Shown here: piece by piece, positions 23,933 to 45,093 of the stretch
Numbering within the stretch: the first letter of the stretch is position 1
How the letters are laid out: every line of letters starts with the position of its first letter
Source of the DNA: a phage
Length of the DNA stretch: 64,000 bases
Strand: one strand, 5' to 3'
Assembly (NCBI GenBank): GCA_024875585.1
Contig: GCA_024875585.1_4107.1
Program-made: the position numbers and the translations under genes
The notes under the pieces: model-generated
Seen by the model: only the letters and a program-made list of their open reading frames with translations
What the model was told of the DNA's origin: nothing
Databases searched by the model: none

Positions 23933-23941
23933 GAGAACAAT

Positions 23942-24127: not shown

Positions 24128-24128
24128 T

Positions 24129-24314: not shown

Positions 24315-24336
24315 CTAATATACAGACACTAACTAA
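24301..24336 (+). repeat. 18 bp perfect tandem duplication (TATACAGACACTAACTAA x2)
   Basis: spans stop codon of 24129..24314 and reaches the next start codon. Confidence 0.8.
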
Positions 24337-24337
24337 T

Positions 24338-24520: not shown

Positions 24521-24533
24521 TAGAGATAATACT

Positions 24534-24725: not shown

Positions 24726-24847
24726 TTCAACATAGAGACAGGGGAAGCTCCGCAGGGTAAGCATTGGACAGGCTTTAACATATGTTATATATGTTAAAAT
24801 TCAGCCTGGACAAATGCGATCACTAGGATTCTCCCCAGGCTAAACCC

Positions 24848-25088
24848 CGTAATCATATATAAACATTTAAGTAATCATTTATAATCATTGTGGTGATCAG
24901 TAGTGATTAGTATTGAGTACTAGAGTGTAATAGAGTACAGGAATGTGCACGTTTAATCAAGAACGTAGCAGTACTGATATGCCACTAAGTAGGCAGAGGA
25001 AGTCTGCCGTACTTTGTAGTTTCCAAGCTCCTTTTCCATTTTGCAAATTACATCAAATGTAATCAAAAGTAATCACGTAATGATTAGT
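24848..25088. repeat. cluster of at least 9 short (G)TAATCA / TGATTA(G) motifs
   Basis: motif recurs in both orientations in non-coding DNA; candidate protein-binding array. Confidence 0.4.
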
Positions 25089-25135
25089 ACTGAAATATTA
25101 GTTTCATCTTTTTTCAAATACCTTTTTACCCTTCG

Positions 25136-25158
25136 GGATAAATGTATTTTTATCCATT
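25136..25158. promoter_or_regulatory. inverted repeat GGATAAA-N6-TTTATCC with DnaA-box-like TTATCCATT
   Basis: 7 bp perfect inverted repeat; loose match to TTATCCACA consensus. Confidence 0.25.
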
Positions 25159-25198
25159 TACCTTTGGGGTAAAATCCCATTACCCCTTGAGGCTCCAG

Positions 25199-25300
25199 CA
25201 AAAAGTTGGAAAGTACTCCATCGTAAATATGGATCGTAAAAATTTTGGAGTACCTATGAAATAAAAGTTGGATCTTCGAAAGTTGAAATTTACGTTGGGA
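25199..25300. repeat. AT-rich repeat block (AAAGTTGGA direct repeats; GTACTCCA/TGGAGTAC inverted repeat flanking ATCGTAAA x2)
   Basis: nested direct and inverted repeats in non-coding DNA. Confidence 0.4.
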
Positions 25301-25381
25301 CATTGATGTTTTTTGGGATATAATGAGTTTTGTAGTGATGAAGTTTGTACGATTACAGTACTGAATAATGAAAGAAAGCTA

Positions 25382-25409
25382 TTGACATTATGATTCAGTA
25401 CTGTATAAT
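25382..25409 (+). promoter_or_regulatory. sigma70-like promoter TTGACA-N16-TATAAT with no obvious ORF downstream
   Basis: consensus hexamers; may drive a non-coding transcript. Confidence 0.45.
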
Positions 25410-25789
25410 GTTCTACATAGAGAGATGAGTTGCCGCAAACAATTCATTCACTCTACCTCCTGTCGTGAGACAGTACAGAAAAGATAGTTCCTCCTATGCG
25501 TGGTACATCTTTTTATAACCTCTTTTTTAGTAATATAAACAGTACTGGTATTAACAGAATGGTATCAGTACTGACTTTAATCTAATACATTATACCACCA
25601 GCACAAGCTGGTGGATTCCCTCTAACAGTATTCAGTACTACATGATAGTCTTCATCCTCCTAGGGTAACATAGTGAGGGCTATTGTGGGAGTACTGAATA
25701 CTCCTTTCAAAAGATAGAATAATGGTATAGTACCGACGGATTTTGGGCGTAGTTACCCTGGGTGGATTTTGGACGTAGATATGTCTAGC

Positions 25790-25926
25790 CCTCCAGAAGT
25801 CTGGAAGTAAAGATGGCTATCCATCTAGACGGCTAAACGGATAGATTTCTAGATGGCTGTATGGCTAGACGTTTGGATGGCTAAACGGCTAGATGGTTAC
25901 ACGTCTGGAAGTATAGACGGCTAAAT
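25790..25926. repeat. iteron-like repeat cluster (GGCTAAAC / CTAGAYGG / TCTGGAAGT units)
   Basis: at least 5 GGCTA-containing units and 2 TCTGGAAGT units in about 140 bp. Confidence 0.5.
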
Positions 25927-26104
25927 CAAAATTTTTATTTTGTTTTTCCAATAGTTCCCCTACCGCGTGAGGATATTTTTCCCCGCAGTATCTGGAGTTA
26001 GATTTTTCTGAATCTGGAATCATTATCTAATAAACTGGGGGCAATGTCAACCGCCTGGATGAATATTTTTAAAAATAATCTAGTACTGAATTTTGGGCGT
26101 AACT

Positions 26105-26126
26105 ATGCACCCGGTGGGCTTGAGTC
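26105..26126. repeat. dispersed intergenic repeat, orientation B (GCACCCGGTGGG core)
   Basis: preceded by AATTTTGGGCG box; copies at 28244, 30397. Confidence 0.45.
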
Positions 26127-26265
26127 TTTCTCGACTTGATGAAACTATTATACAGTACTAGAAAAATAAAGCAATACCCTAAACGCAAAAAAATTTAATT
26201 AATTTGCTTGCTATCCTGGGCCGTAATATGGTACTATTAGTTCAGTACTGAGAAAGTGCTTTAAC

Positions 26266-26289
26266 CTGCTAGGGTGCGGGAGTGTATCC
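26266..26289. repeat. dispersed intergenic repeat, orientation A (GGGTGCGGGAGTGTATC)
   Basis: copies at 28188, 34916, 38327, 41334, 43624. Confidence 0.45.
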
Positions 26290-26320
26290 TTTTTAAATTA
26301 TATGAATTTTGGGCGGATCT

Positions 26321-26342
26321 CGGCACCCTGTGGGTCAGTGCC
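26321..26342. repeat. dispersed repeat variant (GCACCCTGTGGGTCAGTG)
   Basis: preceded by AATTTTGGGCG box. Confidence 0.4.
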
Positions 26343-26628
26343 TTGTGTCCGGCTTATGTAGTAATTATACGCTTTTTCAGTACTGAGTCAATAGCTAAAA
26401 ACAAAAATAATTGAAAATAATTTAACGCGTTTAAACGGCCCGTAAAGCCCTGGAGTGATTGGAATGGTACAAATGTATAGCTTAGGTGTATTAATGCGTT
26501 AGAATGCGATTGAGGCCGTTTTATGGGGTGTAGTGGTGATTTGATTGATTCAGTACTGAATAATAGTACTGAAAGATAGTTCCCCTATATAGAAAGAAAA
26601 CTATTTTAAAAGTACATGTAGAAAGTAC

Positions 26629-26656
26629 TTGCAAACTATCTCAATTGGCGTATAAT
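26629..26656 (+). promoter_or_regulatory. early promoter AAAGTACTTGCAA-N16-TATAAT
   Basis: A-rich upstream, TTGCAA -35, TATAAT -10; leader hairpin at 26670..26688. Confidence 0.6.
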
Positions 26657-26669
26657 GTTTTACATCGAG

Positions 26670-26688
26670 AGCGGGAACACTTCCCGCT
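26670..26688 (+). promoter_or_regulatory. 5' leader hairpin AGCGGGAA-CAC-TTCCCGCT
   Basis: perfect stem a few nt after predicted TSS. Confidence 0.5.
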
Positions 26689-26711
26689 GCACATAAAGAG
26701 AGATTAAAACG

Positions 26712-27074
26712 ATGGCTACTCAAATCAATAAAATTATTGCTAACCTGGTTAACTTCCGCGACGAGATGAAAGGTCTTCCGGCTGAAACGGTAAAAATTCA
26801 CATTTCAGCTTATCGGGAACTTATTGCAATGTTACCGCTTAAGCGTGAACAATACGCCGCTACCGTGATGCTTGATGCGATGATCCATAAGATGATCGCC
26901 AGTGATTTAACGATGGTTTATCAGTACATGGGCGAAAATTTCGCGGTGTCTGGTAAGCCAGTACCAGGGATGGCAACTACTGAGGAATTGCACGGTTTAA
27001 ATTTAAAACAAGATGCATGGGATAATATGCCTCGTTTCCTGGTATGGGCTGACAGTGGCAAAATTTACAAATAA
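26712..27074 (+). CDS. hypothetical early protein (120 aa)
   Basis: promoter + hairpin + SD AGAGAG upstream. Confidence 0.65.
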   Translation: MATQINKIIANLVNFRDEMKGLPAETVKIHISAYRELIAMLPLKREQYAATVMLDAMIHKMIASDLTMVYQYMGENFAVSGKPVPGMATTEELHGLNLKQDAWDNMPRFLVWADSGKIYK

Positions 27075-27088
27075 GTTTAATAAAGTAC

Positions 27089-27116
27089 TTGCATACTAAG
27101 TTAAAACAAGTATAAT
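27089..27116 (+). promoter_or_regulatory. early promoter TTGCAT-N16-TATAAT
   Basis: AAAGTACTTGCAT...TATAAT. Confidence 0.55.
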
Positions 27117-27135
27117 ACTTTCTATCAGGTGCAAC

Positions 27136-27174
27136 GGGAAGTTTTTAAACTTCCCTATAGGGGAATAGTTCCCC
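27136..27174 (+). promoter_or_regulatory. conserved double leader hairpin (GGGAAGTTT-loop-AAACTTCCC + GGGGAATAGTTCCCC)
   Basis: near-identical element also at 35486, 37580, 41762. Confidence 0.55.
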
Positions 27175-27195
27175 ACTATATAAGAGGATTAAAAA

Positions 27196-27435
27196 ATGGC
27201 TAAATCAAAAATGTTCTTAGGTCACAAAAACAAAACTCATTGGAATGTAAGCCTTTGGATTAATAACGATGAGTCATTGTACCGGTTGGCCCAGGACTTT
27301 ATTGCCGCCAACACTAATCGCAATGATGCGGCCCGTCATATGATGTTATTTTTAGAACAGACTGGACAAGATAAAACACCGGACGGATTCAAATATAGCA
27401 CTACTGCGATCCGTGCGGCGATGGTTGGAATGTAA
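27196..27435 (+). CDS. hypothetical early protein (79 aa); paralogue of 29228..29467
   Basis: shared GHKNKTHWNVSLWINNDESLYR...STTAIRAAMVGM. Confidence 0.65.
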   Translation: MAKSKMFLGHKNKTHWNVSLWINNDESLYRLAQDFIAANTNRNDAARHMMLFLEQTGQDKTPDGFKYSTTAIRAAMVGM

Positions 27436-27520
27436 TAGAATTTATTTAAAGTACTATCGCAAAAAATGATAGTACTTTATAATAGTGTTTTATTCATACA
27501 CCAACGATAAGGGCAACAGC

Positions 27521-27787
27521 ATGAATATTAAGTATTTTGCGACGCGTGAACAAGCTCGGAAGGCGGCGAAAGTGGAAGGTGCAACGTTTAAAGATATGGG
27601 CATACAATCGGAACGTGGTAAACGTTGGGCCATTGTAAAGCGTAGTACAGCCAGATCATTACAGTACTGGCTATCAGCTTTAAAAAGTCCTGATAGTGTA
27701 TCGCGTCGAGTGGTAGAAATAAAGCTCGACCGTAAGGGGAATCGTGTTACCGTGTACCGTACTAAAAAGATTGCAGTGCTTGAATAA
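27521..27787 (+). CDS. hypothetical early protein; paralogue of 39641..40036
   Basis: ATG after SD AAGGG; shared KYFATREQAR...RKGNRVTVY. Confidence 0.6.
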   Translation: MNIKYFATREQARKAAKVEGATFKDMGIQSERGKRWAIVKRSTARSLQYWLSALKSPDSVSRRVVEIKLDRKGNRVTVYRTKKIAVLE

Positions 27788-27794
27788 AAAGTAC

Positions 27795-27822
27795 TTGCAA
27801 ACTATGTTTAATGGCGTATAAT
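27795..27822 (+). promoter_or_regulatory. early promoter TTGCAA-N16-TATAAT
   Basis: same consensus as 26629..26656, with GCGGGAA hairpin after it. Confidence 0.6.
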
Positions 27823-27873
27823 GTTTTACATCGAGAGCGGGAACACTTCCCGCCTATAACCTGGAGTAATAAA

Positions 27874-28104
27874 ATGACTAATATGTATATGACTGAAGTT
27901 AAAACCGTAAAAGATACTACCACTAATAAAACTACTTACTTACAGCGGATCTGTGGTGTATGGCAACGTATCAGCAAATCAAAGTACTTTAAATTAACAT
28001 CATATGCCAATCGTTCGGATTCATTCAGTACTGAAATAAAAGGTAATAAAGTACACCAATACGGCACTTATTATTATTATAGCCTGGCCGCGATTGCAGT
28101 ATAA
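27874..28104 (+). CDS. hypothetical early protein (76 aa)
   Basis: ATG after SD GGAGTAA; track start 27811 lies inside the promoter. Confidence 0.55.
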   Translation: MTNMYMTEVKTVKDTTTNKTTYLQRICGVWQRISKSKYFKLTSYANRSDSFSTEIKGNKVHQYGTYYYYSLAAIAV

Positions 28105-28187
28105 GTAGTTTACAAATCTTTACAATTGCCGGTATTGACTTAAAATGTCAGTACTGGCATAATGTATCTATTGAAACGAACAATTTG

Positions 28188-28214
28188 GCCCACGGGGTGC
28201 GGGAGTGTATCTAT
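28188..28214. repeat. dispersed intergenic repeat, orientation A
   Basis: GGCCCACGGGGTGCGGGAGTGTATCTAT. Confidence 0.45.
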
Positions 28215-28243
28215 AGAAAAAGTAGTTTAGTACAGTTACAATT

Positions 28244-28269
28244 GTGCACCCGGTGGGTTAGCTGTTGTC
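28244..28269. repeat. dispersed intergenic repeat, orientation B
   Basis: GTGCACCCGGTGGGTTAGCTGTTGTC. Confidence 0.45.
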
Positions 28270-28352
28270 ATGGGATATATTATACCAGTACTGGATAGTG
28301 CTGTCAATACCTTTTTACTATTCAGTACTGAAAACTATTTGATAAAAAGTAC

Positions 28353-28380
28353 TTGCAAACTATGTTTAAAGGCGTATAAT
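28353..28380 (+). promoter_or_regulatory. early promoter TTGCAA-N16-TATAAT
   Basis: consensus; followed by conserved 83 nt leader element. Confidence 0.6.
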
Positions 28381-28386
28381 GTTTTA

Positions 28387-28469
28387 CATCAGGACGGGGA
28401 ATGAAATAAGTAACTTCCCGTTAAGTAGCCCAGGAGTAAGGCATACGAAAAACTCCCCTGATAAAATAG
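28387..28469 (+). ncRNA. conserved leader element / candidate small RNA (about 83 nt)
   Basis: near-identical copy at 38447..38529; sits between two promoters; no ORF. Confidence 0.25.
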
Positions 28470-28470
28470 T

Positions 28471-28498
28471 TTGACAATTGTTTTTAAAAGCGTATAAT
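28471..28498 (+). promoter_or_regulatory. early promoter TTGACA-N16-TATAAT
   Basis: consensus hexamers before 28531 gene. Confidence 0.6.
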
Positions 28499-28530
28499 AC
28501 TTACATCAACTACTGAATGAGGGTTACAAA

Positions 28531-29142
28531 ATGAAAACTATCACTACTACTACTTATGTTATGGATTTTTCTGAATTGAACGCAGAACAAAAAACGTCAG
28601 CTATCGAACTGGTTCGGGAACGTGAAAAAAACTTAAACGACGATTATTTTTCTGAAAGTGAAATTGAATACTATAAAGAAACAGTATTGCCGGAATATGG
28701 CATTAATGAAGCTGAAATACAATTCAGTGGTTTTTGGTCGCAGGGTGACGGTGCATCAATTAGTACTGACCACGTTGACGCAGTGAAGTTTTTACGTAAG
28801 GTAAGAGCATTAACTAAGTATCGCTCAATCCGTCACCTGCTGAATGAAGATGATTTGGCGATGAGTGTAAAGCGTTCTCACTCCCGCTACTCACATGAGA
28901 ACACTGTAAGCGGGTACATTGAATCGGCTTACACTGATTTAACCGCAAAACAAGAAACGTTAGTTAATGAGCTTGAGGAACTACTCACTGATACTATTCG
29001 TGAATTATCCCGCAAGTTGTACCGTGATTTAGAAAATGCATATGAGGATCAATTCACTACTGAAAACATCGTATCACTGATTGAGGGTAACGAATATCAA
29101 TTCAATGTTATTGATGGCGTAGTAGAATCAATTGCATATTAA
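28531..29142 (+). CDS. hypothetical acidic protein (203 aa)
   Basis: ORF after tandem promoters; SD GAGGG. Confidence 0.65.
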   Translation: MKTITTTTYVMDFSELNAEQKTSAIELVREREKNLNDDYFSESEIEYYKETVLPEYGINEAEIQFSGFWSQGDGASISTDHVDAVKFLRKVRALTKYRSIRHLLNEDDLAMSVKRSHSRYSHENTVSGYIESAYTDLTAKQETLVNELEELLTDTIRELSRKLYRDLENAYEDQFTTENIVSLIEGNEYQFNVIDGVVESIAY

Positions 29143-29227
29143 AAAGTACTTGCAAACTAAGTTTAAAAGCGTATAATACTTTATATCGAGGCGGGGAATG
29201 GTTCCCCGCTCAAACGAGGATTTAAAA

Positions 29228-29467
29228 ATGGCTAGTACTAAAACTTACAACGGACACAAAAACAAAACTCATTGGAATGTAAGCCTTTGGATCAATAACG
29301 ATGAATCATTGTACCGGATTGCTCAAAATTGCATCGCTCAAAGTAAAACGAAAGATATTGCAGCGGAATTTATGTACCGCAGATTAAAAGCCAACGGTAT
29401 TACTACAACGCCGGACGGATTCAAGTATAGCACTACGGCGATCCGTGCTGCAATGGTTGGAATGTAA
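29228..29467 (+). CDS. hypothetical early protein (79 aa); paralogue of 27196..27435
   Basis: ATG after SD GAGGA; track start 29198 lies in the leader hairpin. Confidence 0.6.
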   Translation: MASTKTYNGHKNKTHWNVSLWINNDESLYRIAQNCIAQSKTKDIAAEFMYRRLKANGITTTPDGFKYSTTAIRAAMVGM

Positions 29468-29524
29468 TATTCAGTACTATAACAATGGCGGGGAATAGTT
29501 CCCGCCTTTACTAAGGGTTATCTA

Positions 29525-29806
29525 ATGAGTAAAGTAATAAAGTACAATGTGTTAAGCAAATCATTGTCTATCAGTGAATGCACCGATGGTTTTTGGCTGT
29601 ACGATGAAACGCGTGGCATGAATTTAGCTATGCAGGAGAAAACTGCTGATGCGGCATATCTTAAAGCACTGGAATACTACCAGAAGCGTTTAACGGAAGT
29701 AGAAAACGATTATAATAACCTTAAAGCGAAAGTGGATAATTTCGTTGGTCAATTCGTTGACGATGACGAGGGGCACTACTGCGACCGTTGTGGATCTTAC
29801 AGTTAA
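29525..29806 (+). CDS. hypothetical protein (93 aa)
   Basis: leader hairpin GGCGGGGAATAGTTCCCGCC upstream; SD AAGGG. Confidence 0.55.
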   Translation: MSKVIKYNVLSKSLSISECTDGFWLYDETRGMNLAMQEKTADAAYLKALEYYQKRLTEVENDYNNLKAKVDNFVGQFVDDDEGHYCDRCGSYS

Positions 29807-29823
29807 GTACTAAGGATTATATA

Positions 29824-30027
29824 ATGAGTGATTTAATTGAACGTATCAAAGAGCTTGAAGAAAAAGAATTGCAGTTGATCGGTTTACAGAATAAAATCTA
29901 TCATGATTTGGGGAGTTTTATCAATGCGTGGGATAATGGCGATCCTGATGCGTTACCTGCTAACCGCCAGGCAATGATCAATGATGTGCGTGGTGTCTTT
30001 GAGTATGTTTTAAAGCAATTAAATTAA
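29824..30027 (+). CDS. hypothetical protein (67 aa)
   Basis: ATG after SD AAGGATT; track start overlaps previous gene. Confidence 0.5.
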   Translation: MSDLIERIKELEEKELQLIGLQNKIYHDLGSFINAWDNGDPDALPANRQAMINDVRGVFEYVLKQLN

Positions 30028-30036
30028 AAAAAGTAC

Positions 30037-30064
30037 TTGCAATTAGTTTTTAGTACTGTATAAT
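30037..30064 (+). promoter_or_regulatory. early promoter TTGCAA-N16-TATAAT
   Basis: consensus; leader hairpin GGGAGAAATGGTTCTCCC at 30078..30095. Confidence 0.6.
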
Positions 30065-30114
30065 GTTTTACATAGAGGGGAGAAATGGTTCTCCCTGGTA
30101 ATGAGGAAAATACA

Positions 30115-30336
30115 ATGGCTAATATCACTACTCTTTCTCAACTGGAAGCACTGGTTAAATCTATGCGGGAACATGCCGACAAAATCGGCGTAAAAGATCC
30201 AGCCGTTTGCTTCTGCGACGAAATGAATGATGATACATTGGTAATAGCAGAAGTTCAGGACGTTTCTAACTATTCATCGCGTTACACTGGCGGCGTAGCA
30301 AATAAAGGTGACTTCTGTTTATACCTTACAAAATAA
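30115..30336 (+). CDS. hypothetical early protein (73 aa)
   Basis: ATG after SD GAGGAAAA; track start is the ATG inside the hairpin loop. Confidence 0.6.
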   Translation: MANITTLSQLEALVKSMREHADKIGVKDPAVCFCDEMNDDTLVIAEVQDVSNYSSRYTGGVANKGDFCLYLTK

Positions 30337-30342
30337 CAACGA

Positions 30343-30369
30343 GGGGATCAATTGATCCCCTTTCTTTTT
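30343..30369 (+). terminator. rho-independent terminator (GGGGATCAATTGATCCCC + T-tract)
   Basis: palindromic stem followed by TTTCTTTTT. Confidence 0.65.
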
Positions 30370-30396
30370 CAGTACTGAATAATTTAATAGACGGAT

Positions 30397-30429
30397 CTAT
30401 GCACCCGGTGGGTTAGTGACTGTTTCGTC
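30397..30429. repeat. dispersed intergenic repeat, orientation B
   Basis: CTATGCACCCGGTGGGTTAGTGACTGTTTCGTC. Confidence 0.45.
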
Positions 30430-30502
30430 TTTATGTAGTAATTATGCCAGTACTGGATGCACTTGTCAACAACTATTTTTCAAATACTTTTTATTAAAAT
30501 AC

Positions 30503-30530
30503 TTGCAATTAGTTTTTAAACGCGTATAAT
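30503..30530 (+). promoter_or_regulatory. early promoter TTGCAA-N16-TATAAT
   Basis: consensus; hairpin GGGGGAGCGGTTCCCC follows. Confidence 0.6.
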
Positions 30531-30577
30531 GTTTTGCATAGGGGGAGCGGTTCCCCTGGTAACTAAGGAATAAGAAA

Positions 30578-30814
30578 ATGGTCGAACAAATCAAATCAAC
30601 GTCTTCGAATGTAACGGGAACGGTAGCACACTTTACTTGTGATGAATCGCGGGGCGTTCCCTATTGTGCTGTACATGTAAACACTGAGGGTAACTACTGG
30701 TTTACGGTTTACGGATCATATTCATTTGGACGGCCAGGGCATCAAAAAATTCTGGATAAAGTACAACCAACGGGTAAAAATATCACTGCCGAAATGTTTT
30801 ATAAAAACAAATAA
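30578..30814 (+). CDS. hypothetical early protein (78 aa)
   Basis: SD AAGGAATAAG. Confidence 0.6.
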   Translation: MVEQIKSTSSNVTGTVAHFTCDESRGVPYCAVHVNTEGNYWFTVYGSYSFGRPGHQKILDKVQPTGKNITAEMFYKNK

Positions 30815-30908
30815 AAGTACTTGATAATAGTTTGACTATGTATTACAGTACTGTATAATAGATACATAAGGGGCGAATAGTTTGCCCCTAGTACAAAGGG
30901 GAAACATT

Positions 30909-31139
30909 ATGCCAGGCCGAATAGTTTTACTTAACGCTGGAAGTACTACACAACTCCTTAACGCCGTGTATTATGATATTGAAACGAGCGTCAATCTTAT
31001 CAGTACTGTAGTATTGTTGGACACTGGAAAGGTCGCAAATGATAAAGCGATTGCAGGTATACTAACGGATCTTAAACCAGGTTGCAGTACTCCAATAACT
31101 TTAAATGATAAAGTGTTTAATATTTTACTAACTGATTAA
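30909..31139 (+). CDS. hypothetical early protein (76 aa)
   Basis: ATG after SD AAGGGG; promoter TTGACT...TATAAT and hairpin GGGGCGAATAGTTTGCCCC upstream. Confidence 0.55.
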   Translation: MPGRIVLLNAGSTTQLLNAVYYDIETSVNLISTVVLLDTGKVANDKAIAGILTDLKPGCSTPITLNDKVFNILLTD

Positions 31140-31145
31140 GTACAT

Positions 31146-31174
31146 AGCCCACCTGGTGGGCTTTTTTGTTTTTG
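31146..31174 (+). terminator. rho-independent terminator (AGCCCACC-UGG-UGGGCU + T-tract)
   Basis: hairpin + TTTTTTGTTTTT. Confidence 0.65.
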
Positions 31175-31211
31175 TAGTACTGCATACTTTGAAAATAGTT
31201 TTAAAAAAGTA

Positions 31212-31239
31212 GTTGACATTACCGCAAAAAGGCGTAGAA
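31212..31239 (+). promoter_or_regulatory. early promoter TTGACA-N16-TAGAAT
   Basis: followed by a diverged copy of the conserved leader element. Confidence 0.5.
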
Positions 31240-31363
31240 TGTATTACATCAAGACGGGGAGCACTAAGTAGACCGCCAGTAAGTCGAACGAAAAACTGGA
31301 CACGTCGAGAAAACTTTGATACACTAACTAACATAAACTAAACTTTAATTGAGGATTTATAAA

Positions 31364-31846
31364 ATGGCTAATGTAAAATCATTTCTGAAAGCACTGATTT
31401 CTAACGATACTGCTATTGCTGCTGAATTGCTGGCGGATCTGGATAGCGATACCATGAAAGCGGTACGCAACAATTTTAACATTGCGTACAGTGAAGCTAA
31501 AGAACTGCAAGCCAAAAAGATAGCAGAACTGGAAGAACAGAAAAAAGCCCGTGAAGAAGAATTACAAGCAACTATTGAAAGTATTCAGGCGGCGGTTGCA
31601 GGGTTGGATCTGGATGTAGTTGTAGAAATGGCACATAAAGCCCTGGCAGTTAAGTACGGTGAAGATAAGCCAGTATCTAAACCTAAAAAATGGATTCAGG
31701 AACGCGTAACGGTTGTTCTTGATAATGGCGAGGAACATTTAATTCCCGTGCGTGGTAACTGCATTGCGGTAGTTCTGGATGCTATCAAAGAAAGCGGATT
31801 GACTCGCGAGGAATGGATCGAAGCTCACCGCAAGATTGAAGCATAA
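31364..31846 (+). CDS. hypothetical protein (160 aa), predicted helical
   Basis: ATG after SD GAGGATT. Confidence 0.65.
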   Translation: MANVKSFLKALISNDTAIAAELLADLDSDTMKAVRNNFNIAYSEAKELQAKKIAELEEQKKAREEELQATIESIQAAVAGLDLDVVVEMAHKALAVKYGEDKPVSKPKKWIQERVTVVLDNGEEHLIPVRGNCIAVVLDAIKESGLTREEWIEAHRKIEA

Positions 31847-31867
31847 CAATTAAAGTACTGAATCAAT

Positions 31868-31895
31868 AGCCCACTTTTTATAGTGGGCTTTTTTG
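31868..31895 (+). terminator. rho-independent terminator (GCCCAC-loop-GTGGGC + T6)
   Basis: hairpin + TTTTTTGTG. Confidence 0.6.
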
Positions 31896-32122
31896 TGCTT
31901 ATCGTTTACCATGCCACCAGCACCGCCTAGAATCGATTCTAACGCATTAAACTGATTATCTGATGAATCGCCCTAGCTGGTGGCGTTAATGCCGTTAGAA
32001 CGCGATTGAGGATGTTTAAAGTATTTTTGCAAAAAGTAATAAAAAGTACTTGCACGATTAAGAGATTAGAGTATAATTAATTACATCAAGACAAGACACC
32101 TTAACTAACTGAGGATATAAAG

Positions 32123-32275
32123 ATGAATACTTATGAACTGGATTGTTTTACTTTACAAGTAATGTCAGTATGCAGTAAAAAAGATTGGTCATCAAAGGAA
32201 TTTAAAGCAGTTATTGCGTGTGCAAAACACGGCAAGACTATCAATGAAACGGCATCAATCATTGATAAACTTTAA
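32123..32275 (+). CDS. small hypothetical protein (50 aa)
   Basis: promoter TTGCAC...TATAAT upstream; SD GAGGATA; below track cutoff. Confidence 0.4.
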   Translation: MNTYELDCFTLQVMSVCSKKDWSSKEFKAVIACAKHGKTINETASIIDKL

Positions 32276-32345
32276 AAAATAGTTTGACAATAGTTTTAAG
32301 TACTGCGATAATACATACATCAACTACTGAATAGGAATAAAAACA

Positions 32346-32573
32346 ATGGCTATCGTAATCACTCGCGTAACTGGTACTACTGGCACTGCTTCAACTGTTG
32401 CTGTAATTACTAATAAGAAAGGTGCAGAATTACATTTTGCAATGGATAAATGGGCCGTTAATGAGTTTGGTCAGTGGGCAAGTGTAGAATACATTGAAAC
32501 CTATCAAGTGCCATCGATTAGCTTAACTGATTTAGGTGTAGAACGTATCCTTTGTCTGGATGAATTAAATTAA
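32346..32573 (+). CDS. hypothetical early protein (75 aa)
   Basis: promoter TTGACA...CGATAAT upstream; SD AGGAATAA. Confidence 0.6.
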   Translation: MAIVITRVTGTTGTASTVAVITNKKGAELHFAMDKWAVNEFGQWASVEYIETYQVPSISLTDLGVERILCLDELN

Positions 32574-32660
32574 AAAAGTACTTGCAAAGTAAATCGAATA
32601 AAGTATAATACATTACATCAAGGGGAGAAAATGGTTCTCCCCACTAAGAGGAAACTAAAA

Positions 32661-32804
32661 ATGAAAACTTGTCAATGTGGTAAAAAATCTATTACTGGTT
32701 TGAAACGGGGCGTTTCACTTTGCCAGTACCATTATAATTTACAAGTATGGGGTAAAGAATGGGCCGACCAGGTTGAAGCATCAAAGAAAGCAAAAAGTAA
32801 GTAA
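32661..32804 (+). CDS. small Cys-rich protein (47 aa), possible zinc ribbon
   Basis: CQCG...CQYH; promoter + hairpin + SD AAGAGGAAA; below track cutoff. Confidence 0.4.
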   Translation: MKTCQCGKKSITGLKRGVSLCQYHYNLQVWGKEWADQVEASKKAKSK

Positions 32805-32823
32805 AATTATTATCACAGTACTA

Positions 32824-32852
32824 TTGACATAGATTGATAGTACTGGCATAAT
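32824..32852 (+). promoter_or_regulatory. repeated promoter cassette TTGACA-N17-CATAAT (copy 1)
   Basis: about 80 bp block incl. RBS and ATGGCT repeated at 33119, 35781, 42948. Confidence 0.55.
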
Positions 32853-32885
32853 AGATTTTATCAAGACAACTAAGAGGAAATTAAA

Positions 32886-33098
32886 ATGGCTATCATTATT
32901 AAAAACAAAGTTAATAAGACTATCGTTAAACTGGCAGAAGTGAAAGAAGGTTATAAAGTATCTTGGGAGGGTTTTTATCGGACGTTTACTGATATTGACG
33001 ATGCAATCAATTACTACACTGATACGGTTAAAAACTTTGTTCGTGCTGATGTGGTTATGGCAGTGGCAACATATAAAGCATCAAAAGAAAGTAAGTAA
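32886..33098 (+). CDS. hypothetical early protein (70 aa)
   Basis: MAII... start shared with 35841 gene; SD AAGAGGAAA. Confidence 0.6.
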   Translation: MAIIIKNKVNKTIVKLAEVKEGYKVSWEGFYRTFTDIDDAINYYTDTVKNFVRADVVMAVATYKASKESK

Positions 33099-33118
33099 AA
33101 AATATTATCACAGTACTA

Positions 33119-33147
33119 TTGACATAGATTGATAGTACTGGCATAAT
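33119..33147 (+). promoter_or_regulatory. repeated promoter cassette (copy 2)
   Basis: identical to copy 1. Confidence 0.55.
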
Positions 33148-33180
33148 AGATTTTATCAAGACAACTAAGAGGAAATTAAA

Positions 33181-33525
33181 ATGGCTAACATCAATACTAT
33201 AGCAGCACAAAATATCAACCTGTCTTCTGTTGAAGTTGTACACATTGCCGCCCGGCGTTGGTTCCAGGCGTCTTATGGTAATACGTATTTCTCTTTAACG
33301 GTAGATGTTGAAATCAATGGCGAATTTATTGAAGTAGTAAACGTGCCGTTCCAATATGGCTACGGGGATCATTTTGACACTGTAGCAATGGAAGAATTAA
33401 GCAAGGTTATTAATATGGAAGGTAAAGAGTTTTTACGCGGTTCTTATCTTTCCCGTTTTTGCCGTGATAATAATATTACTGTTTATAGTTCTGTTAGTGA
33501 TGTTAAACGCAAAAAAGATCTTTAA
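33181..33525 (+). CDS. hypothetical early protein (114 aa); paralogue of 39222..39545
   Basis: shared FQYGYGDHF / FTYGYGTQG and C-terminal VKRKKD. Confidence 0.65.
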   Translation: MANINTIAAQNINLSSVEVVHIAARRWFQASYGNTYFSLTVDVEINGEFIEVVNVPFQYGYGDHFDTVAMEELSKVINMEGKEFLRGSYLSRFCRDNNITVYSSVSDVKRKKDL

Positions 33526-33538
33526 TTAGCTTTACTTT

Positions 33539-33567
33539 ATGCAGATACTTTGATACAGTGTCTGCAT
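33539..33567. promoter_or_regulatory. inverted repeat ATGCAGA-N15-TCTGCAT
   Basis: 7 bp perfect inverted repeat after 33181 gene; operator or weak terminator. Confidence 0.3.
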
Positions 33568-33605
33568 AGGGGAAAGAAATTAAATCAACTTAAGAGGATA
33601 GTAAA

Positions 33606-33875
33606 ATGAAAAATATCAGTACTTTAATCGATGCAGGTACACATGTTCGTCGGTCTATGGTTGCAACCAGTTCTACAAAACAAGTAGCGAGCGGTTATCT
33701 TGTATTTGTGCACGATGGTAAACTCCTGGAACGTTCAATCAATTTTGATGTTAAAAACAATTGCCGTTTTATTATCTTTAAGCGTGAGCAATATAAAATT
33801 GATTTACCAGCGAAGCCCATTAGTGGGGCGTACAACGTTCAATCATTGTTTGAGCGTCAACCATACACCTATTAA
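33606..33875 (+). CDS. hypothetical protein (89 aa)
   Basis: SD AAGAGGATAG. Confidence 0.6.
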   Translation: MKNISTLIDAGTHVRRSMVATSSTKQVASGYLVFVHDGKLLERSINFDVKNNCRFIIFKREQYKIDLPAKPISGAYNVQSLFERQPYTY

Positions 33876-33926
33876 TCAAAACAACGTTAGCGGTCGATTT
33901 AGGCCGCTTATACTGGGGATTATATA

Positions 33927-34199
33927 ATGAATACTAATCAAGTACTGAATGAGATTGAAAGCATCATTAAACCGATGAAGCGTACTGATGCTATGTTAAC
34001 ACCGGAAGAATGCCGCCTTTATGAGCGTTACAGCGTCGAACAAGTCCAGGCAATGGCTATGGCTACCCCAGCCGTTAAACAGCCTGAGAACGCGTTACAG
34101 GACGTTACAGGGGATTATATCATCAATCCAGTACTAGGGAAGATGGAAGCAATCACCGAAGAACAAAAAGACTACTTAAGCCAGTACTTAAAAGGTTAA
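33927..34199 (+). CDS. hypothetical protein (90 aa)
   Basis: ORF, ATG start. Confidence 0.55.
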   Translation: MNTNQVLNEIESIIKPMKRTDAMLTPEECRLYERYSVEQVQAMAMATPAVKQPENALQDVTGDYIINPVLGKMEAITEEQKDYLSQYLKG

Positions 34200-34204
34200 T
34201 TAAT

Positions 34205-34414
34205 ATGCTTACTGTACAGGATAAGATCGACATCTTAAAGGTTAATATGTATGTGATTGATGCAGATCCTGAAAAAGTATTTGCATACGATGATTCTAAT
34301 CGTAGTCCTTTTTATTGTAGTCATGTAGTTGGATATGTGCCGTTATCGTATGTTATCGAAAGAGTGGTTGATTCAGCATACAAACATTTTTTAGAAAATA
34401 GTACTTGCAATTAG
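34205..34414 (+). CDS. hypothetical protein (69 aa)
   Basis: TAATTAATATG junction. Confidence 0.55.
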   Translation: MLTVQDKIDILKVNMYVIDADPEKVFAYDDSNRSPFYCSHVVGYVPLSYVIERVVDSAYKHFLENSTCN

Positions 34415-34482
34415 TTTTTAGTACTGTATAATGTTTTACATGAAGGGGGGAAATGATTCTCCCCAATAACAGGAGAAACAAA

Positions 34483-34635
34483 ATGAAACAATACAACGCT
34501 CGGTTTGATGTTACTATCGGCAACGGCAAAGGTCAATTCTCTTTCAGTACTCGTAAGAGTTATACAGAAAACTTCTTGCGTAATTGTGCACTGACCGCCG
34601 CACAAATTAAACATTATTTTCAGGCTAAAAAATGA
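34483..34635 (+). CDS. small hypothetical protein (50 aa)
   Basis: ATG after SD AGGAGAAA; track start 34453 lies in the leader hairpin. Confidence 0.45.
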   Translation: MKQYNARFDVTIGNGKGQFSFSTRKSYTENFLRNCALTAAQIKHYFQAKK

Positions 34636-34721
34636 AATCATTAGCTTATTATAGCTCGGCCCTGGTCGGTGCATTGATCGCGGCATTGTTAGTAGCTTAT
34701 CTATTCTTTATGGTGATTTAA
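34632..34721 (+). CDS. tiny hydrophobic peptide (29 aa)
   Basis: ATGA-coupled; single TM-like segment; speculative. Confidence 0.3.
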   Translation: MKSLAYYSSALVGALIAALLVAYLFFMVI

Positions 34722-34859
34722 ATGAATCCTAACGGTATAATTTACAGTACTCCTAAAACGAAAGCAGATAAAGCGGAAGCACGTAAAGCGAAAGTAAAGG
34801 AGTACATCAAGCAAGGTATGACACGAAAGGCGGCGATTCTAAAAGCTAAAAATAAATGA
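34722..34859 (+). CDS. small basic protein (45 aa)
   Basis: TAAATG-coupled; Lys-rich; speculative. Confidence 0.3.
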   Translation: MNPNGIIYSTPKTKADKAEARKAKVKEYIKQGMTRKAAILKAKNK

Positions 34860-34866
34860 AAAAAAG

Positions 34867-34889
34867 TGGTTGACTTCGGTCAGCCATTT
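34867..34889 (+). terminator. terminator hairpin (GGTTGAC-UUCG-GTCAGCC) with weak T-tract
   Basis: start of a 130 bp repeated intergenic module. Confidence 0.5.
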
Positions 34890-34915
34890 TGCTATTATAT
34901 ATTCATTGAGAGATA

Positions 34916-43352: not shown

Positions 43353-43553
43353 ATGTCTATCGCTATCGCCCTGGTCGAAGTACTGAAAGAAGCTAAAGCC
43401 AACCTTATCGATGTACAGATTAAGGAATTGCAAAATGGCTTAATCGGCTGTACTTGTACCGCTGGTGGCCCGTCAGACTATCGGGAATTCGAATCACTTG
43501 AATCGATGGTCCGTTATCTTACAATCATCGTAGAAGATTGGAGAATCATCTAA
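43353..43553 (+). CDS. hypothetical early protein (66 aa)
   Basis: promoter TTGACA...TATAAT + hairpin GCGGGGGAATAGTTCTCCCGC. Confidence 0.6.
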   Translation: MSIAIALVEVLKEAKANLIDVQIKELQNGLIGCTCTAGGPSDYREFESLESMVRYLTIIVEDWRII

Positions 43554-43572
43554 CAAAAAAAAAGAATAAAAA

Positions 43573-43597
43573 GGGATTGACTCCGGTCAGTCCCTTT
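43573..43597 (+). terminator. terminator hairpin (GGGATTGAC-UCCG-GTCAGTCCC + TTT)
   Basis: same cassette as 41282. Confidence 0.5.
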
Positions 43598-43623
43598 GCT
43601 ATTATATACGCATAGACAAAAAC

Positions 43624-43655
43624 TAGCCCACAGGGTGCATAGGTGTATCTAAAAT
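43624..43655. repeat. dispersed intergenic repeat, orientation A (diverged)
   Basis: AGCCCACAGGGTGCATAGGTGTATCTAAAATAT. Confidence 0.4.
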
Positions 43656-43799
43656 ATATAGTTAATAACGGTGAGTAACCATCTGCTGGTGGAGTGAAAA
43701 CTATTAATAAAAAGTATTGACAAAGTATATCAGTACTGCAATAATGTATCTCGTAGGGCGGCAATGGTGCGACGGCCCACAAAGTTAGGAGATACACAA

Positions 43800-44132
43800 A
43801 TGAGTACTTCAATCGCTATCGTTAAAGCTTTCATCCGTACCAACGTTTCATCTGTATTCATTGACGGATTGGATCGGGAAGTAGAATACTCAATCATTAT
43901 CGCACAAACGGCAAACGGTGCTCGGTACATCCTTAATGATAGTGAAGCAAATCACTACTACTTCACTAAAGCCACTGGCTTTAAACGCATCGATGCTGAT
44001 GTAGTATACGCTAAGATGAATAAGCTGGTAGATAAGATTAACACTAAAGGTACTATCGATTTACAGTACTGGACCGAAACCGATCCAGAATATGGATCTC
44101 ACCGCTACCTGAATCCAGGTATTAAAATGTAA
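43800..44132 (+). CDS. hypothetical protein (110 aa)
   Basis: ATG after SD AGGAGATA; promoter TTGACA...TGCAAT upstream. Confidence 0.6.
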   Translation: MSTSIAIVKAFIRTNVSSVFIDGLDREVEYSIIIAQTANGARYILNDSEANHYYFTKATGFKRIDADVVYAKMNKLVDKINTKGTIDLQYWTETDPEYGSHRYLNPGIKM

Positions 44133-44221
44133 AAAGTACTTGTGTAGCACTTAGATTTAAGTATAATGTTTTTCATAGAGAGGGGGAAATGGTTCTCCCT
44201 CATAAATTAAGGAGTTTTATC

Positions 44222-44623
44222 ATGACCTTCTCAATCACTTCCTTCGCTGACGTTTTAGTACTGGCTCGGACTTTTGGCAAAGCTGGCCTTGAGCACGCTG
44301 TAAGTAATGGTTATATGCACCCGGAATATTGCCGCATTATCGGTAGCTGCAAACGTTGGGCCGTGTCCCGTAATATTGAGATTGAAAACTTCAATGATGG
44401 TAACAACGAATATACAGTTGATGCAGTATTCGAATCCGTTGATCTCGGCGGTATCTATAACACTAACCTGAATGATGTGCGTATCGTTCGCACGGGGTTC
44501 GGTGCTTATGATGTATCTATCCGTGAAGCGATGGACAAGGGATACATTAGCAAGGATCAGTTAGCTTACATTATGCAGCAGACTAAAGAGCGTAATGAAG
44601 CACGCACTATCTTAGGTCTGTAA
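44222..44623 (+). CDS. hypothetical protein (133 aa)
   Basis: ATG after SD AAGGAG; track start lies in the hairpin. Confidence 0.6.
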   Translation: MTFSITSFADVLVLARTFGKAGLEHAVSNGYMHPEYCRIIGSCKRWAVSRNIEIENFNDGNNEYTVDAVFESVDLGGIYNTNLNDVRIVRTGFGAYDVSIREAMDKGYISKDQLAYIMQQTKERNEARTILGL

Positions 44624-44647
44624 GCATTACACATCACTAAACATCAT

Positions 44648-44667
44648 AGGCCGCTCTCTAGCGGCCT
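44648..44667 (+). promoter_or_regulatory. perfect hairpin AGGCCGCT-CUCU-AGCGGCCU (no T-tract)
   Basis: 8 bp GC-rich stem after 44222 gene; weak terminator or RNA stabiliser. Confidence 0.35.
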
Positions 44668-44691
44668 TAACTATATCAGGAGTACATACAC

Positions 44692-44901
44692 ATGATCTAT
44701 ACAGTATACAGCGTTCTAGGCACTATTGCAGGTGTACACGATAACGTCGATGATACTATGAGTACAGTACTGCAACAGGTTCCACTAAAGCCTAAGACAG
44801 TTAAGAAGATGACCGCACGACTAACCAGGGCGACGGCTGGCGTGGAAGTATGGCAGGACTACGGGGATACACAGGTAATCGTAAGCGTAACGAGGGATTA
44901 A
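44692..44901 (+). CDS. hypothetical protein (69 aa)
   Basis: SD CAGGAG. Confidence 0.55.
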   Translation: MIYTVYSVLGTIAGVHDNVDDTMSTVLQQVPLKPKTVKKMTARLTRATAGVEVWQDYGDTQVIVSVTRD

Positions 44902-44929
44902 TACGTAAAATGATTTAGTACTGATTCAG

Positions 44930-44995
44930 AAAAAAGTCAAGGCGTTTTTAAAATTATGCGTTAAAAAAATGCATAGGTAATCCCTTGACTTTTTT
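44930..44995. promoter_or_regulatory. 13 bp inverted repeat AAAAAAGTCAAGG / CCTTGACTTTTTT separated by 40 bp
   Basis: perfect inverted repeat in non-coding DNA ahead of family L array. Confidence 0.4.
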
Positions 44996-45093
44996 GAAAT
45001 AAAAGGGATTGGACTATGGCAAAATGCGTAGGGGGGCTAAAGTGCGGGTAACTTAGCGGCTTCGATAAAGGGGTATTACGAATAAAATGTTAT

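Follow-up and report, generated by a model that had tools for sequence, protein, structure and literature searches.

A probable control region without genes at the terminal-repeat boundary of an Asteriusvirus-type jumbo coliphage, with a predicted array of sites for the host methionine repressor

Terminase recognition by way of phased boxes on either side of the cut is well known from the pacL-pacC-pacR region of phage SPP1 and from cosB of phage lambda. The described region that comes closest to the one treated here is Repeat Region 3 of phage T5, on which Heusterspreute (1987) and Wang (2005) are reportedly the earlier works. It is a large untranslated region at the boundary of the T5 terminal repeat, and a candidate injection stop signal (Davison, bioRxiv 10.1101/866236). 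In phage P1 and its relatives, Chi sites are concentrated in the terminally redundant DNA, where they have been proposed to aid RecBCD-dependent circularisation (Subramaniam and Smith, bioRxiv 10.1101/2021.07.08.451572; PMC12315714). Our subject is an island of just under 2 kb, without convincing open reading frames (ORFs) and crowded with short repeats, in 64,000 nucleotides of phage DNA (contig GCA_024875585.1_4107.1 of assembly GCA_024875585.1), the whole of which we call the window.

An earlier note on this DNA, made from the letters alone, had seen in the island a candidate replication origin, packaging site or small-RNA locus. All six classes of repeat that it described are indeed present where it placed them, and its interpretation is partly supported, in that the island holds a packaging end and not an iteron origin. 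Our own reading, to which we would give a probability of roughly 0.7, is that the island is a non-coding control region at the left boundary of a direct terminal repeat (DTR) of about 20 kb in an Asteriusvirus-type jumbo phage, and the jumbo-phage counterpart of T5 Repeat Region 3. On our in silico analysis, the leader of this repeat is built from sites for host machinery, namely orphan promoters, a Chi hairpin and boxes of the kind bound by the methionine repressor MetJ. A control region at a terminal-repeat boundary is of a known general kind; the MetJ super-operator appears to be undescribed and common to unrelated terminal-repeat phages, and we found no literature linking met boxes or MetJ to phages.

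The chromosome end and the gene-free island

The window comes from an Asteriusvirus-type jumbo coliphage of the PBECO4/121Q/G17 group. The island and its flanks matched 43 phage records (from Escherichia, Salmonella and Klebsiella phages) at 85-93% identity, and among the matches listed each is a jumbo genome of about 310-385 kb whose genus, where assigned, is Asteriusvirus (PBECO4, 121Q, G17, phAPEC6, fEgEco12). The ends of several such chromosomes have been described: fEgEco12 has a linear genome of 374,733 bp with a DTR of 20,993 bp, found by PhageTerm and confirmed by restriction digests, and the DTR of vB_Ec-M-J is 21,525 bp (PMC13070987), while that of Sharanji is 20,668 bp (PMC11895373). 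The two DTR copies of fEgEco12 do not differ, and in the alignment its nucleotide 1 (AGTAGGCAGAGGAAGTCTGCC...) falls on window position 24988; the DTR start stated for vB_Ec-M-J is the same homologous base. The record of G17 has a 20,668-bp repeat at both ends, and it closes on 80 bases of which all 80 are identical to window 24988-25067 and opens at the homologue of 45053. From these three genomes, each deposited independently of the others, we place the left terminus of the packaged DNA between 24987 and 24988 and the right one between 45053 and 45054, which puts a fixed end of the virion DNA, by homology alone, inside the island. The packaging option of the earlier note is thus borne out, the mapped left end of three close relatives falling within the island with TAATCA boxes on both sides of the cut.

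Because terminase would cut concatemers at this point, the island divides into a 262-bp tail of the unique region (24726-24987) and a 1,724-bp untranslated DTR leader with which the chromosome starts (24988-26711); this leader of 1.7 kb would recur about 20 kb from the right end of every packaged chromosome. Across the cut, the share of invariant columns in the alignment of relatives rises from 32% (with 47% of columns gapped) to 85%. A terminal hairpin with a 6-bp stem (GGCAGAGGAAGTCTGCC, 24992-25008) starts 5 nt from the end. The same layout is found in Klebsiella phage Muenster, in which PhageTerm places the repeat at 1-20,030 and the first 1.3 kb or so are gene-free.

The island is genuinely non-coding. 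It extends from 24726 to 26711, up to the first ORF of the terminal repeat (26712-27074), and, just as the earlier note had judged, it offers no convincing frame, the longest reaching at most 76 amino acids (aa) and none being kept in frame across 11 related genomes, in whose alignment the indels of the island are not multiples of three. The annotations of G17, vB_Ec-M-J, PBECO4, 121Q, A4 and ph0011 have no coding sequence (CDS) here, and in the annotated relatives that we inspected the homologous stretch of about 1.9 kb is gene-free or carries one isolated, unsupported call. Nor does it look like a locus of known RNAs: ARAGORN found neither tRNA nor transfer-messenger RNA (tmRNA) in the island, Rfam 15 gave zero matches at gathering score over the whole window, and the covariance-model search that the earlier note had called for returned nothing meaningful from the island even at E<5 (best E-value 2.8, at 19 bits). 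The best-kept stretch of the island, 26086-26300, has 80-86% invariant columns over 10 genomes, which is above the adjacent genes, and can be aligned in part to Muenster.

The earlier note had also counted (G)TAATCA/TGATTA motifs in this DNA, and their cluster is real. Eight strict TAATCA/TGATTA hexamers fall in 24850-25086, and no other 256-bp stretch of the window has as many (the next best has 5, on a background of 1.33 per kb). Those upstream lie 34-138 bp before the cut and are in part in a phase of 10-11 bp; their sequence turns over between genomes, yet there are three to five such boxes in every genome that shares the terminus. The downstream trio stands at the same offsets in seven of nine terminus-sharing relatives, is shifted in vB_Ec-M-J and CMSTMSU, and comes down to one box in A4. 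We suggest that terminase would recognise the terminal hairpin and the phased TAATCA boxes to the left and right of the cut. As in SPP1 pac and lambda cosB, short boxes about one helical turn apart flank a fixed cleavage position, and as with the SRL/SRR arrays beside the terminal repeat of T7, there are repeat arrays just inside the DTR. Unlike in SPP1 and lambda, whose box sequences are unrelated to these, the second cut lies 20 kb off without a common motif.

A predicted MetJ super-operator

What the earlier note had called an iteron-like block, at 25790-25926, is a true tandem array, with a period of 8/16/24 bp and a length that varies between genomes by 8-bp steps; the tandem repeats therefore stand, but their identity as iterons does not, since the 8-bp period and the match to the MetJ operator matrix are not those of Rep-type iterons. 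We scored the array with the matrix and thresholds of Augustus and Spicer (PMC3228920), under which a MetJ site consists of at least two adjacent 8-bp boxes, each with at least one quarter of the consensus score and with a sum of at least the consensus score (threshold 12.6). The stretch 25811-25922 is the sole site of this kind in the window, and its 14 adjacent boxes, at +824 to +935 from the left end, add up to 98.4 bits (a mean of 7.0 bits per box) with 12 distinct units. Read in one phase, these units are AGACGGCT, AAACGGAT, AGATGGCT, AGACGTTT, ACACGTCT and so on, all variants of the met box AGACGTCT. The longest run of MetJ boxes in 200 shuffles was 4, and 8-mers that score at least 7 bits make up 0.13% of all 8-mers. 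As a positive control, 10 kb of E. coli K-12 yielded only the operators of metJ/metB (4 boxes, 31.2 bits) and metF (4 boxes, 24.9 bits).

In addition, the base use pooled over eight phage arrays follows the published operator frequencies, second choices too. At position 1 the phage arrays have A.80 and G.20 (published operators A.76 and G.16), at position 2 G.85 (G.67), at position 3 A.79 and C.21 (A.87 and C.10), and at position 4 C.63 and T.29 (C.69 and T.26). The host does encode the repressor (metJ of E. coli, b3938). Our prediction from these letters is that the supposed iterons form a MetJ super-operator, with about 14 sites for the methionine repressor of the host. With the E. coli MetJ operators (metJ/metB, metF, metA and metC, which have the consensus AGACGTCT) the array has the exact 8-bp phasing in common, and its boxes score on a par with those of metF and metJ/B (7.0 bits here, 6.2-7.8 there). 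What sets it apart is the number of boxes, which is 14-15 here, with maxima of 28-36 in other phages and viral contigs, as against 2-5 in natural operators. It also lies, unlike those of E. coli, in phage DNA beside a chromosome end, and it does not overlap the promoter of any methionine gene: no met gene is adjacent, and P3 (26050-26022), the closest promoter, is 90-230 bp off. The array is thus operator-like DNA and not an operator of the met regulon.

MetJ of the host, in complex with S-adenosylmethionine (SAM), would coat the array, and we can see two uses for this. The one is that MetJ would be titrated from the met regulon as the phage DNA multiplies, and the other is that a fixed nucleoprotein block would serve the biology of the end, as a barrier to transcription or replication, as a pause in DNA entry, or in the duplication of the terminal repeat.

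The array is not peculiar to this phage. Arrays of 12-21 boxes are present in all 10 Asteriusvirus loci, and there are equivalents in other jumbo genera, in T5-like and T7-like phages and in one unclassified Vibrio phage. In the terminal repeat of Pectobacterium phage CBB, for example, nt 685-804 contain 13 boxes, and Yersinia phage fHe-Yen9-04 has 11; among T5-like phages there are 28 boxes (221 bits) in Aeromonas phage AhSzq-1, 15 in Vibrio phage Pontus, and nine near-perfect ones in Providencia phage PR1, 800 bp before its repeat end. The T7-like coliphage PGT2 (Autographiviridae) has nine at nt 38-109, 38 nt from the start of its record, and a 17-kb viral contig of IMG/VR has 36 (356 bits, 7257-7544), near the contig end. 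Where repeat boundaries are annotated (Asteriusvirus, CBB and Providencia PR1), the distance from there to the array is no more than about 1 kb. A BLAST search with the AhSzq-1 array matched 96 of 50,697 phage records, with hosts in Escherichia, Vibrio, Erwinia, Aeromonas, Salmonella, Providencia, Pectobacterium, Cronobacter and Serratia and with one in Xanthomonas. MetJ is confined to five gammaproteobacterial orders (Enterobacterales, Vibrionales, Aeromonadales, Pasteurellales and Alteromonadales), and 95 of the 96 matched phages have a host in one of these; the exception is Xanthomonas phage XbC2, in which the match is at about the same record position as in Erwinia jumbo phages. We also considered a MetJ encoded by phages themselves, and this candidate was rejected, as tblastn with E. 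coli MetJ against the same 50,697 records returned only bacterial contamination.

T5 itself has only chance-level sites of two MetJ boxes. At the place equivalent to the array, T5 and Muenster have instead near-consensus clusters of Fur boxes, with 4 and 9 sites, respectively, that score at least 14/19 against 0.2-0.4 expected; these clusters, which match GATAATGATAATCATTATC at up to 16/19, lie at 9470-9650 in T5 and at 780-910, 1073-1325 and 2422-2447 in Muenster. Neither MetJ nor Fur is mentioned in Davison's analysis of the T5 region, and the Fur-box clusters do not figure in the T5 literature that we consulted. The island itself has no Fur boxes.

How far does the likeness to T5 go? On its sequence the region looks like a jumbo-phage counterpart of T5 Repeat Region 3, both being kilobase-scale untranslated regions that straddle a terminal-repeat boundary, consist of direct and inverted repeats without genes, and are conserved above the neighbouring genes. 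The 8-bp array is also present in the T5 relatives AhSzq-1, Pontus and PR1, where a CCCT..GCG motif and dispersed repeats, ATTTTGGG among them, come after it. The full order in T5-like phages is DnaA boxes, an optional Fur-like palindrome, the MetJ array, CCCT(C)CTGCGCC and the dispersed repeats with ATTTTGGG; in the window it is ATTTTGGGCG repeats, the array, CCCCTACCGCG, and then CAGTACTG and ATTTTGGGCG repeats, and in CBB the ATTTTGGG motif also precedes the array. When compared by eye only, CCCCTACCGCG resembles the CCCTCCTGCGCC that follows the T5-like arrays and the 7.9% nick site of T5 (gCCCTGCGc), and in T5 the motif after the Fur-like boxes is that annotated nick site. There are differences as well: the boundary concerned is the left (outer) one here and the right (inner) one in T5, the island is without DnaA boxes, paired ones in inverted repeats of the IRD'/IRC' type included, and without Fur-like boxes, T5 is without the MetJ array, and two-step DNA transfer and nicks are T5 features that are not known for jumbo phages.

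Chi sites, promoters and smaller repeats

Chi (GCTGGTGG) occurs 11 times in the window, where 0.49 copies would be expected, ten times inside the DTR and once in the 44 kb outside it. Within the DTR, eight sites on the top strand and two on the bottom strand compare with expectations of 0.14-0.27 and 0.03-0.06 (Markov orders 1-4), an enrichment of about 40-fold, and among the 168 octamers with this composition Chi comes first. The sites, for which fEgEco12 has orthologues, are spread over coding sequence, non-coding sequence and the stems of two hairpins. The bottom-strand Chi at 25595-25602, in the hairpin that carries Chi in both orientations, faces a RecBCD enzyme entering at the left end, 607 bp off, and the top-strand sites (43685, 43461 and others) face the right end, the nearest being 1.36 kb in; in both cases the enzyme, coming from the nearer end, would meet Chi from its 3' side, as a hotspot requires. 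The hairpin is kept in eight of 11 genomes and is annotated as a terminator in G17, and A4 and EJP2 have non-Chi hairpins in its place; its loop (25603-25606) reads ACAA or the complement TTGT depending on the genome, as if the centre of the palindrome inverts. The likeness to P1 lies in the over-representation of Chi, in both orientations, specifically in the terminal repeats of linear virion DNA, and the difference in the fixed ends and exact repeat of a virulent phage, where P1 is a temperate plasmid with headful packaging and variable ends. Chi would limit the degradation of entering ends by RecBCD and would feed recombination of the two repeats by RecA, from which circles or concatemers would result, as has been proposed for P1; the relative phAPEC6 reportedly encodes a RecA-like recombinase of its own.

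The leftmost promoter of the DTR, P1 in Table 1, lies 394 bp from the end and is kept in 11 of 11 genomes, so that the earlier note was correct in its report of a consensus promoter with no ORF. The 210 nt behind it form a structured stretch that includes a 14-bp hairpin of CAGTACTG...CAGTACTG at 25540-25573. Two further promoters, P2 and P3, point leftwards, through the CACCCNGTGGG elements and into the array. These elements belong to a dispersed family with seven copies, all within the DTR; of the three AATTTTGGGCG...CACCCNGTGGG elements in the earlier note, those at 26088 and 26304 were found as described, but the third, at 25738, is partial. The same note's AAAGTTGGA / GTACTCCA block is among the best-conserved parts of the island, with 57% invariant columns across 10 genomes that include the divergent EJP2, in which one unit is duplicated. 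At the other side of the cut, the nested inverted repeats at 24737-24838, in which about half of the columns are invariant in close relatives, are a candidate transcription stop or insulator.

Table 1. Features of the island and of the DTR boundaries (window coordinates; the strand is left empty where none applies)
Feature	Position	Strand	Remarks
Nested imperfect inverted repeats GGGGAAG..CAGGCT..AACATATGTT..AGCCTG..TTCTCCCC	24737..24838	+	Directly after the last unique-region ORF
Upstream GTRATYA/TAATCA boxes	24849..24960 (24850, 24872, 24882, 24904, 24954)		Candidate terminase boxes
Left physical end, by homology to three relatives	cut 24987/24988; 24988..25058	+	End reads AGTAGGCAGAGG...
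DTR	24988..45053	+	20,066 bp; dense early promoters, Chi-rich
Downstream TAATCA boxes	25059..25086		+72, +82, +93 from the end
Inverted repeat GGATAAA-N6-TTTATCC	25137..25156		DnaA-like element of the earlier note
AAAAGTTGGA (three copies); GTACTCCA/TGGAGTAC arms around ATCGTAAA repeats	25188..25300		Conserved block
P1, perfect sigma-70 promoter TTGACA-16-TATAAT	25382..25409	+	12/12; no ORF downstream
Structured untranslated stretch after P1	25416..25620	+	Minimum free energy (MFE) -61.1 kcal/mol, z = -5.5
Chi hairpin CCACCAGC-ACAA-GCTGGTGG	25595..25614		Chi in both orientations
DTR Chi sites	25595(-), 25607, 31914(-), 31976, 36288, 37430, 38365, 41884, 43461, 43685		
Two direct repeats GGATTTTGG(G/A)CGTAG	25738..25781	+	Immediately before the array
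MetJ-box array (predicted)	25795..25922		14 uninterrupted in-phase boxes at 25811-25922 and one box at 25795-25802
CCCCTACCGCG motif and small hairpin	25950..25985	+	Just after the array
P3, leftward promoter TTGACA-17-GATAAT	26022..26050	-	11/12; points into the array; kept in 10/11 genomes
AATTTTGGGCG-N8-CACCCGGTGGG, copy 1	26088..26118		Small ACCC-NNN-GGGT hairpin
Terminator-like hairpin AGGGTGCGGGAGTGTATCCT, then TTTTT	26271..26295	+	5' arm can pair alternatively with GCACCCT 26323-26329
AATTTTGGGCG-N8-CACCCTGTGGG, copy 2	26304..26334		
P2, leftward promoter TTGACT-16-TATAAT	26364..26391	-	11/12; sigma-70-like
First early-gene promoter TTGCAA-16-TATAAT	26629..26656	+	AGTACT before it
Right DTR boundary	44905-45150; cut 45053/45054		...GGGGGGCTAAAGTGCGGGTAACT / TAGCGGCTTCG; 250-bp gene-free gap; GGCTAAAG just before the cut

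Beyond the leader, 26712-45053 is a highly modular early region. The DTR has 19 rightward promoters that match at 11/12 or better, ten of them perfect, and this density of promoters fits the early-gene character reported for CBB (PMC5259590). Many of the promoters in 26712-45053 have a GC hairpin at the 5' end of the RNA, and a recurring terminator there, GGGATTGACTCCGGTCAGTCCC-TTT, overlaps a promoter-like TTGACT...TATTAT. The DTR is flanked on both sides by tandem arrays of small paralogous ORFs of about 60 aa (21900-24725 and 45150-47000); the left family lies on the + strand and yet has a negative GC skew.

A further peculiarity of this DNA is the palindrome AGTACT, of which the window has 225 copies where about 22 would be expected from base composition, and CAGTACTG occurs 46 times where 0.75 would be expected. 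AGTACT reaches 8.6 per kb in the island and 5.6 per kb in the rest of the DTR, as against 2-2.7 per kb elsewhere, coding DNA included; it forms part of the early promoters (AGTACTTGCAA at -35 and AGTACTGTATAAT at -10), and it also fills the leaders of Muenster and of fHe-Yen9-04. It may be the site of a phage regulator or DNA-binding protein. Outside the DTR, a module of the form attatac..atttaa...aaagCCAGTAtcaAGTACTGGc, the last element being a palindrome that contains AGTACT, follows the minus-strand genes at about 16140, 17565, 18750 and 20000, and is probably a shared terminator or late-promoter cassette.

Weighing the explanations, and what they would mean

A number of points weigh against the picture of a control region with a terminase cut and a MetJ array, and these should be set out together. 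The ends are transferred by homology to relatives, and conservation to the left of the cut is poor (32% invariant columns). The left and right junctions have no significant motif in common (local alignment gave 23, shuffles 19.6 +/- 2.5), and the recognition role of the TAATCA boxes, which we suggest by analogy, is for that reason a guess; an ACTnAG..GGC resemblance between the two cut sites was rejected as short and not significant. The array stands 90-230 bp from its nearest promoter, unlike natural MetJ operators, which sit over one, and its length inflates the statistics because it is a tandem repeat, so that what really counts is the fit of all 12 distinct units to the matrix. MetJ itself is not essential to the function of the module, since Muenster and T5 are without the array and have Fur-box-like repeats at the same place. 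The Chi hairpin may serve mainly as a terminator, as A4 and EJP2 have hairpins without Chi instead, and the strand bias of Chi is as predicted from base composition. We had considered this bias as a clue to the entering end, and dropped it because both orientations are equally enriched relative to composition.

Might the 8-bp array be bound by a protein of the phage, either the terminase small subunit or a ribbon-helix-helix protein of similar specificity, as part of a packaging signal? The arrays do adjoin terminal-repeat boundaries in jumbo and T5-like phages and lie near the record start of the T7-like PGT2, and in IMG/VR about half of the matching stretches are at most 1.5 kb from a contig end, although this proximity is weak as evidence and was left unused, because tandem repeats break assemblies. 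We nevertheless find such a protein an unlikely occupant, as the divergence of the units tracks the MetJ matrix down to the second-choice bases, the host range of the array phages follows the MetJ-bearing orders, genuine phage genomes gave no MetJ homologue in the tblastn search, and the same specificity would be required in three unrelated virion types; the Fur-box arrays that T5 and Muenster swap in at the same place fit interchangeable sites for host factors and not one phage protein. It is less probable still, in our view, that the region is a T5-style signal for a pause in DNA transfer, with host proteins on the arrays taking part in pause and restart. Repeat Region 3 is a candidate injection stop signal in T5, the architecture of array, CCCT..GCG motif and dispersed repeats with ATTTTGGG is common to the T5-like phages, and the jumbo DTR, like the T5 repeat, is packed with early genes driven by host promoters (PMC5259590 for CBB); moreover, if the right end enters first, the module copy in the right repeat would be the last of the roughly 20 kb of early region to go in, as is Repeat Region 3. 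However, the literature that we searched has no report of two-step transfer for Rak2-like phages, the orientations of genes and module are not mirror images of those in T5, the DnaA boxes central to Davison's model were not found in the island, and even in T5 the region has no more than a candidate role (PMC10644984). By analogy with T7, transcription may also help to draw in the DNA.

A replication origin, be it one at which iterons or DnaA boxes recruit an initiator or one at which an RNA from P1 primes the leading strand through an R-loop, as at oriF/oriG of T4, strikes us as improbable. The cumulative GC skew is lowest at 24-25 kb, P1 is perfect and is followed by about 200 nt of untranslated structured sequence, and Rak2-like phages are myoviruses of the T4 superfamily in the portal-protein phylogeny of the CBB paper (PMC5259590). 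Yet gene family and composition change at the very place where the skew switches, with genes on the + strand on both sides, and the same module occurs in the terminal repeats of T5, for which origins are reported near the genome centre (Davison preprint). The earlier note had also offered a DnaA-like arm in the repeat GGATAAA-N6-TTTATCC; the repeat is there, but it is no consensus DnaA box, and it lies within a 31-bp indel that only the window and ph0011 have; it is lineage-specific and probably not functional. The stretch 24726-26711 has no consensus DnaA box (TTWTNCACA) at all. Iterons would measure about 17-22 bp and have the gene of their initiator close by, whereas the period here is that of the 8-bp MetJ-type boxes and the flanking genes are small early ORFs (no search aimed at an initiator was made); the origin proposed in the earlier note is accordingly not supported, with the T4-like promoter/R-loop type as a slim possibility. 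A cluster of genes for small non-coding RNAs, which would be compatible with the control region that we favour, is a somewhat doubtful proposal: P1 would give a structured RNA of about 200 nt, P2 and P3 would give leftward RNAs through the CACCCNGTGGG elements and the array, and an RNA of about 50 nt from the + strand would end at the 26271 hairpin, in antisense overlap with the P2 transcript. It has in its favour three promoters of 11-12/12 without an ORF, significant folding (z = -5.5, -4.6 and -2.4), a few compensatory changes in the post-P1 helices of EJP2, the fact that each of the four + strand CACCCNGTGGG copies follows a leftward promoter at a distance of 40-60 bp, and the conservation of 26086-26300 above that of neighbouring genes. 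Against this, the island matches no Rfam family, only 26271-26295 is a clear intrinsic terminator with a U-tract, and the folding stems from palindromes in the DNA (CAGTACTG, Chi), which might just as well be sites for proteins; the post-P1 helices are kept, but with a covariation term near zero (-0.16), because most of the sequences are from close relatives and too similar. The idea of a decayed or mis-sequenced coding region, with the repeats translated in a longer frame, we give almost no credence. It could appeal to a minus-strand ORF of 99 aa over 26028-26326 in fEgEco12, G17 and vB_Ec-M-J, annotated once, as g614 of fEgEco12 (4760-5059), and this candidate gene was rejected: a 1-nt indel shifts its frame between lineages, in the window, ph0011 and UB it is broken, A4 has a truncated version, and g614 is annotated in just one of the two identical DTR copies, besides which the indels throughout the island speak against coding. 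As its frame is not conserved, g614 is probably a spurious call.

We return, then, to the control region at the terminal-repeat boundary, and to a broader idea about it that we hold only tentatively. Cooperative arrays of operators for host proteins may be a conserved and interchangeable 'host-factor landing pad' beside the terminal-repeat boundaries of unrelated phages with exact repeats, made of MetJ boxes in the window and in many T5-like, Rak2-like and phiKT-like phages and of Fur boxes in T5 and Klebsiella jumbo phages, with DnaA boxes alongside in the T5-like ones. If this is true, the phage either sponges the repressor as its DNA multiplies or uses the protein-coated DNA as a fixed block. 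Sponging of MetJ would de-repress the synthesis of methionine and SAM, and sponging of Fur would do so for iron uptake; a fixed block could serve the pausing of DNA entry, the protection of ends or the duplication of the terminal repeat, and would, if real, put a name to the host component that has long been sought in the injection stop region of T5.

For the annotation of these genomes the gain is that the chromosome ends and the 20 kb DTR are placed in the window and that 2 kb without genes are explained, and the supposed iterons have become a precise and cheaply testable prediction, a 14-box MetJ super-operator. The Chi-rich DTR extends the idea of Chi-assisted recombination of ends from P1 to virulent jumbo phages that are in development for therapy. 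The nature of the T5 injection-stop region has been a question since the 1980s, and there is now a concrete handle on it. If MetJ binds, the array would represent either a new kind of host take-over, in which a transcription-factor sponge raises the supply of methionine and SAM, or a roadblock of host protein at the chromosome ends.

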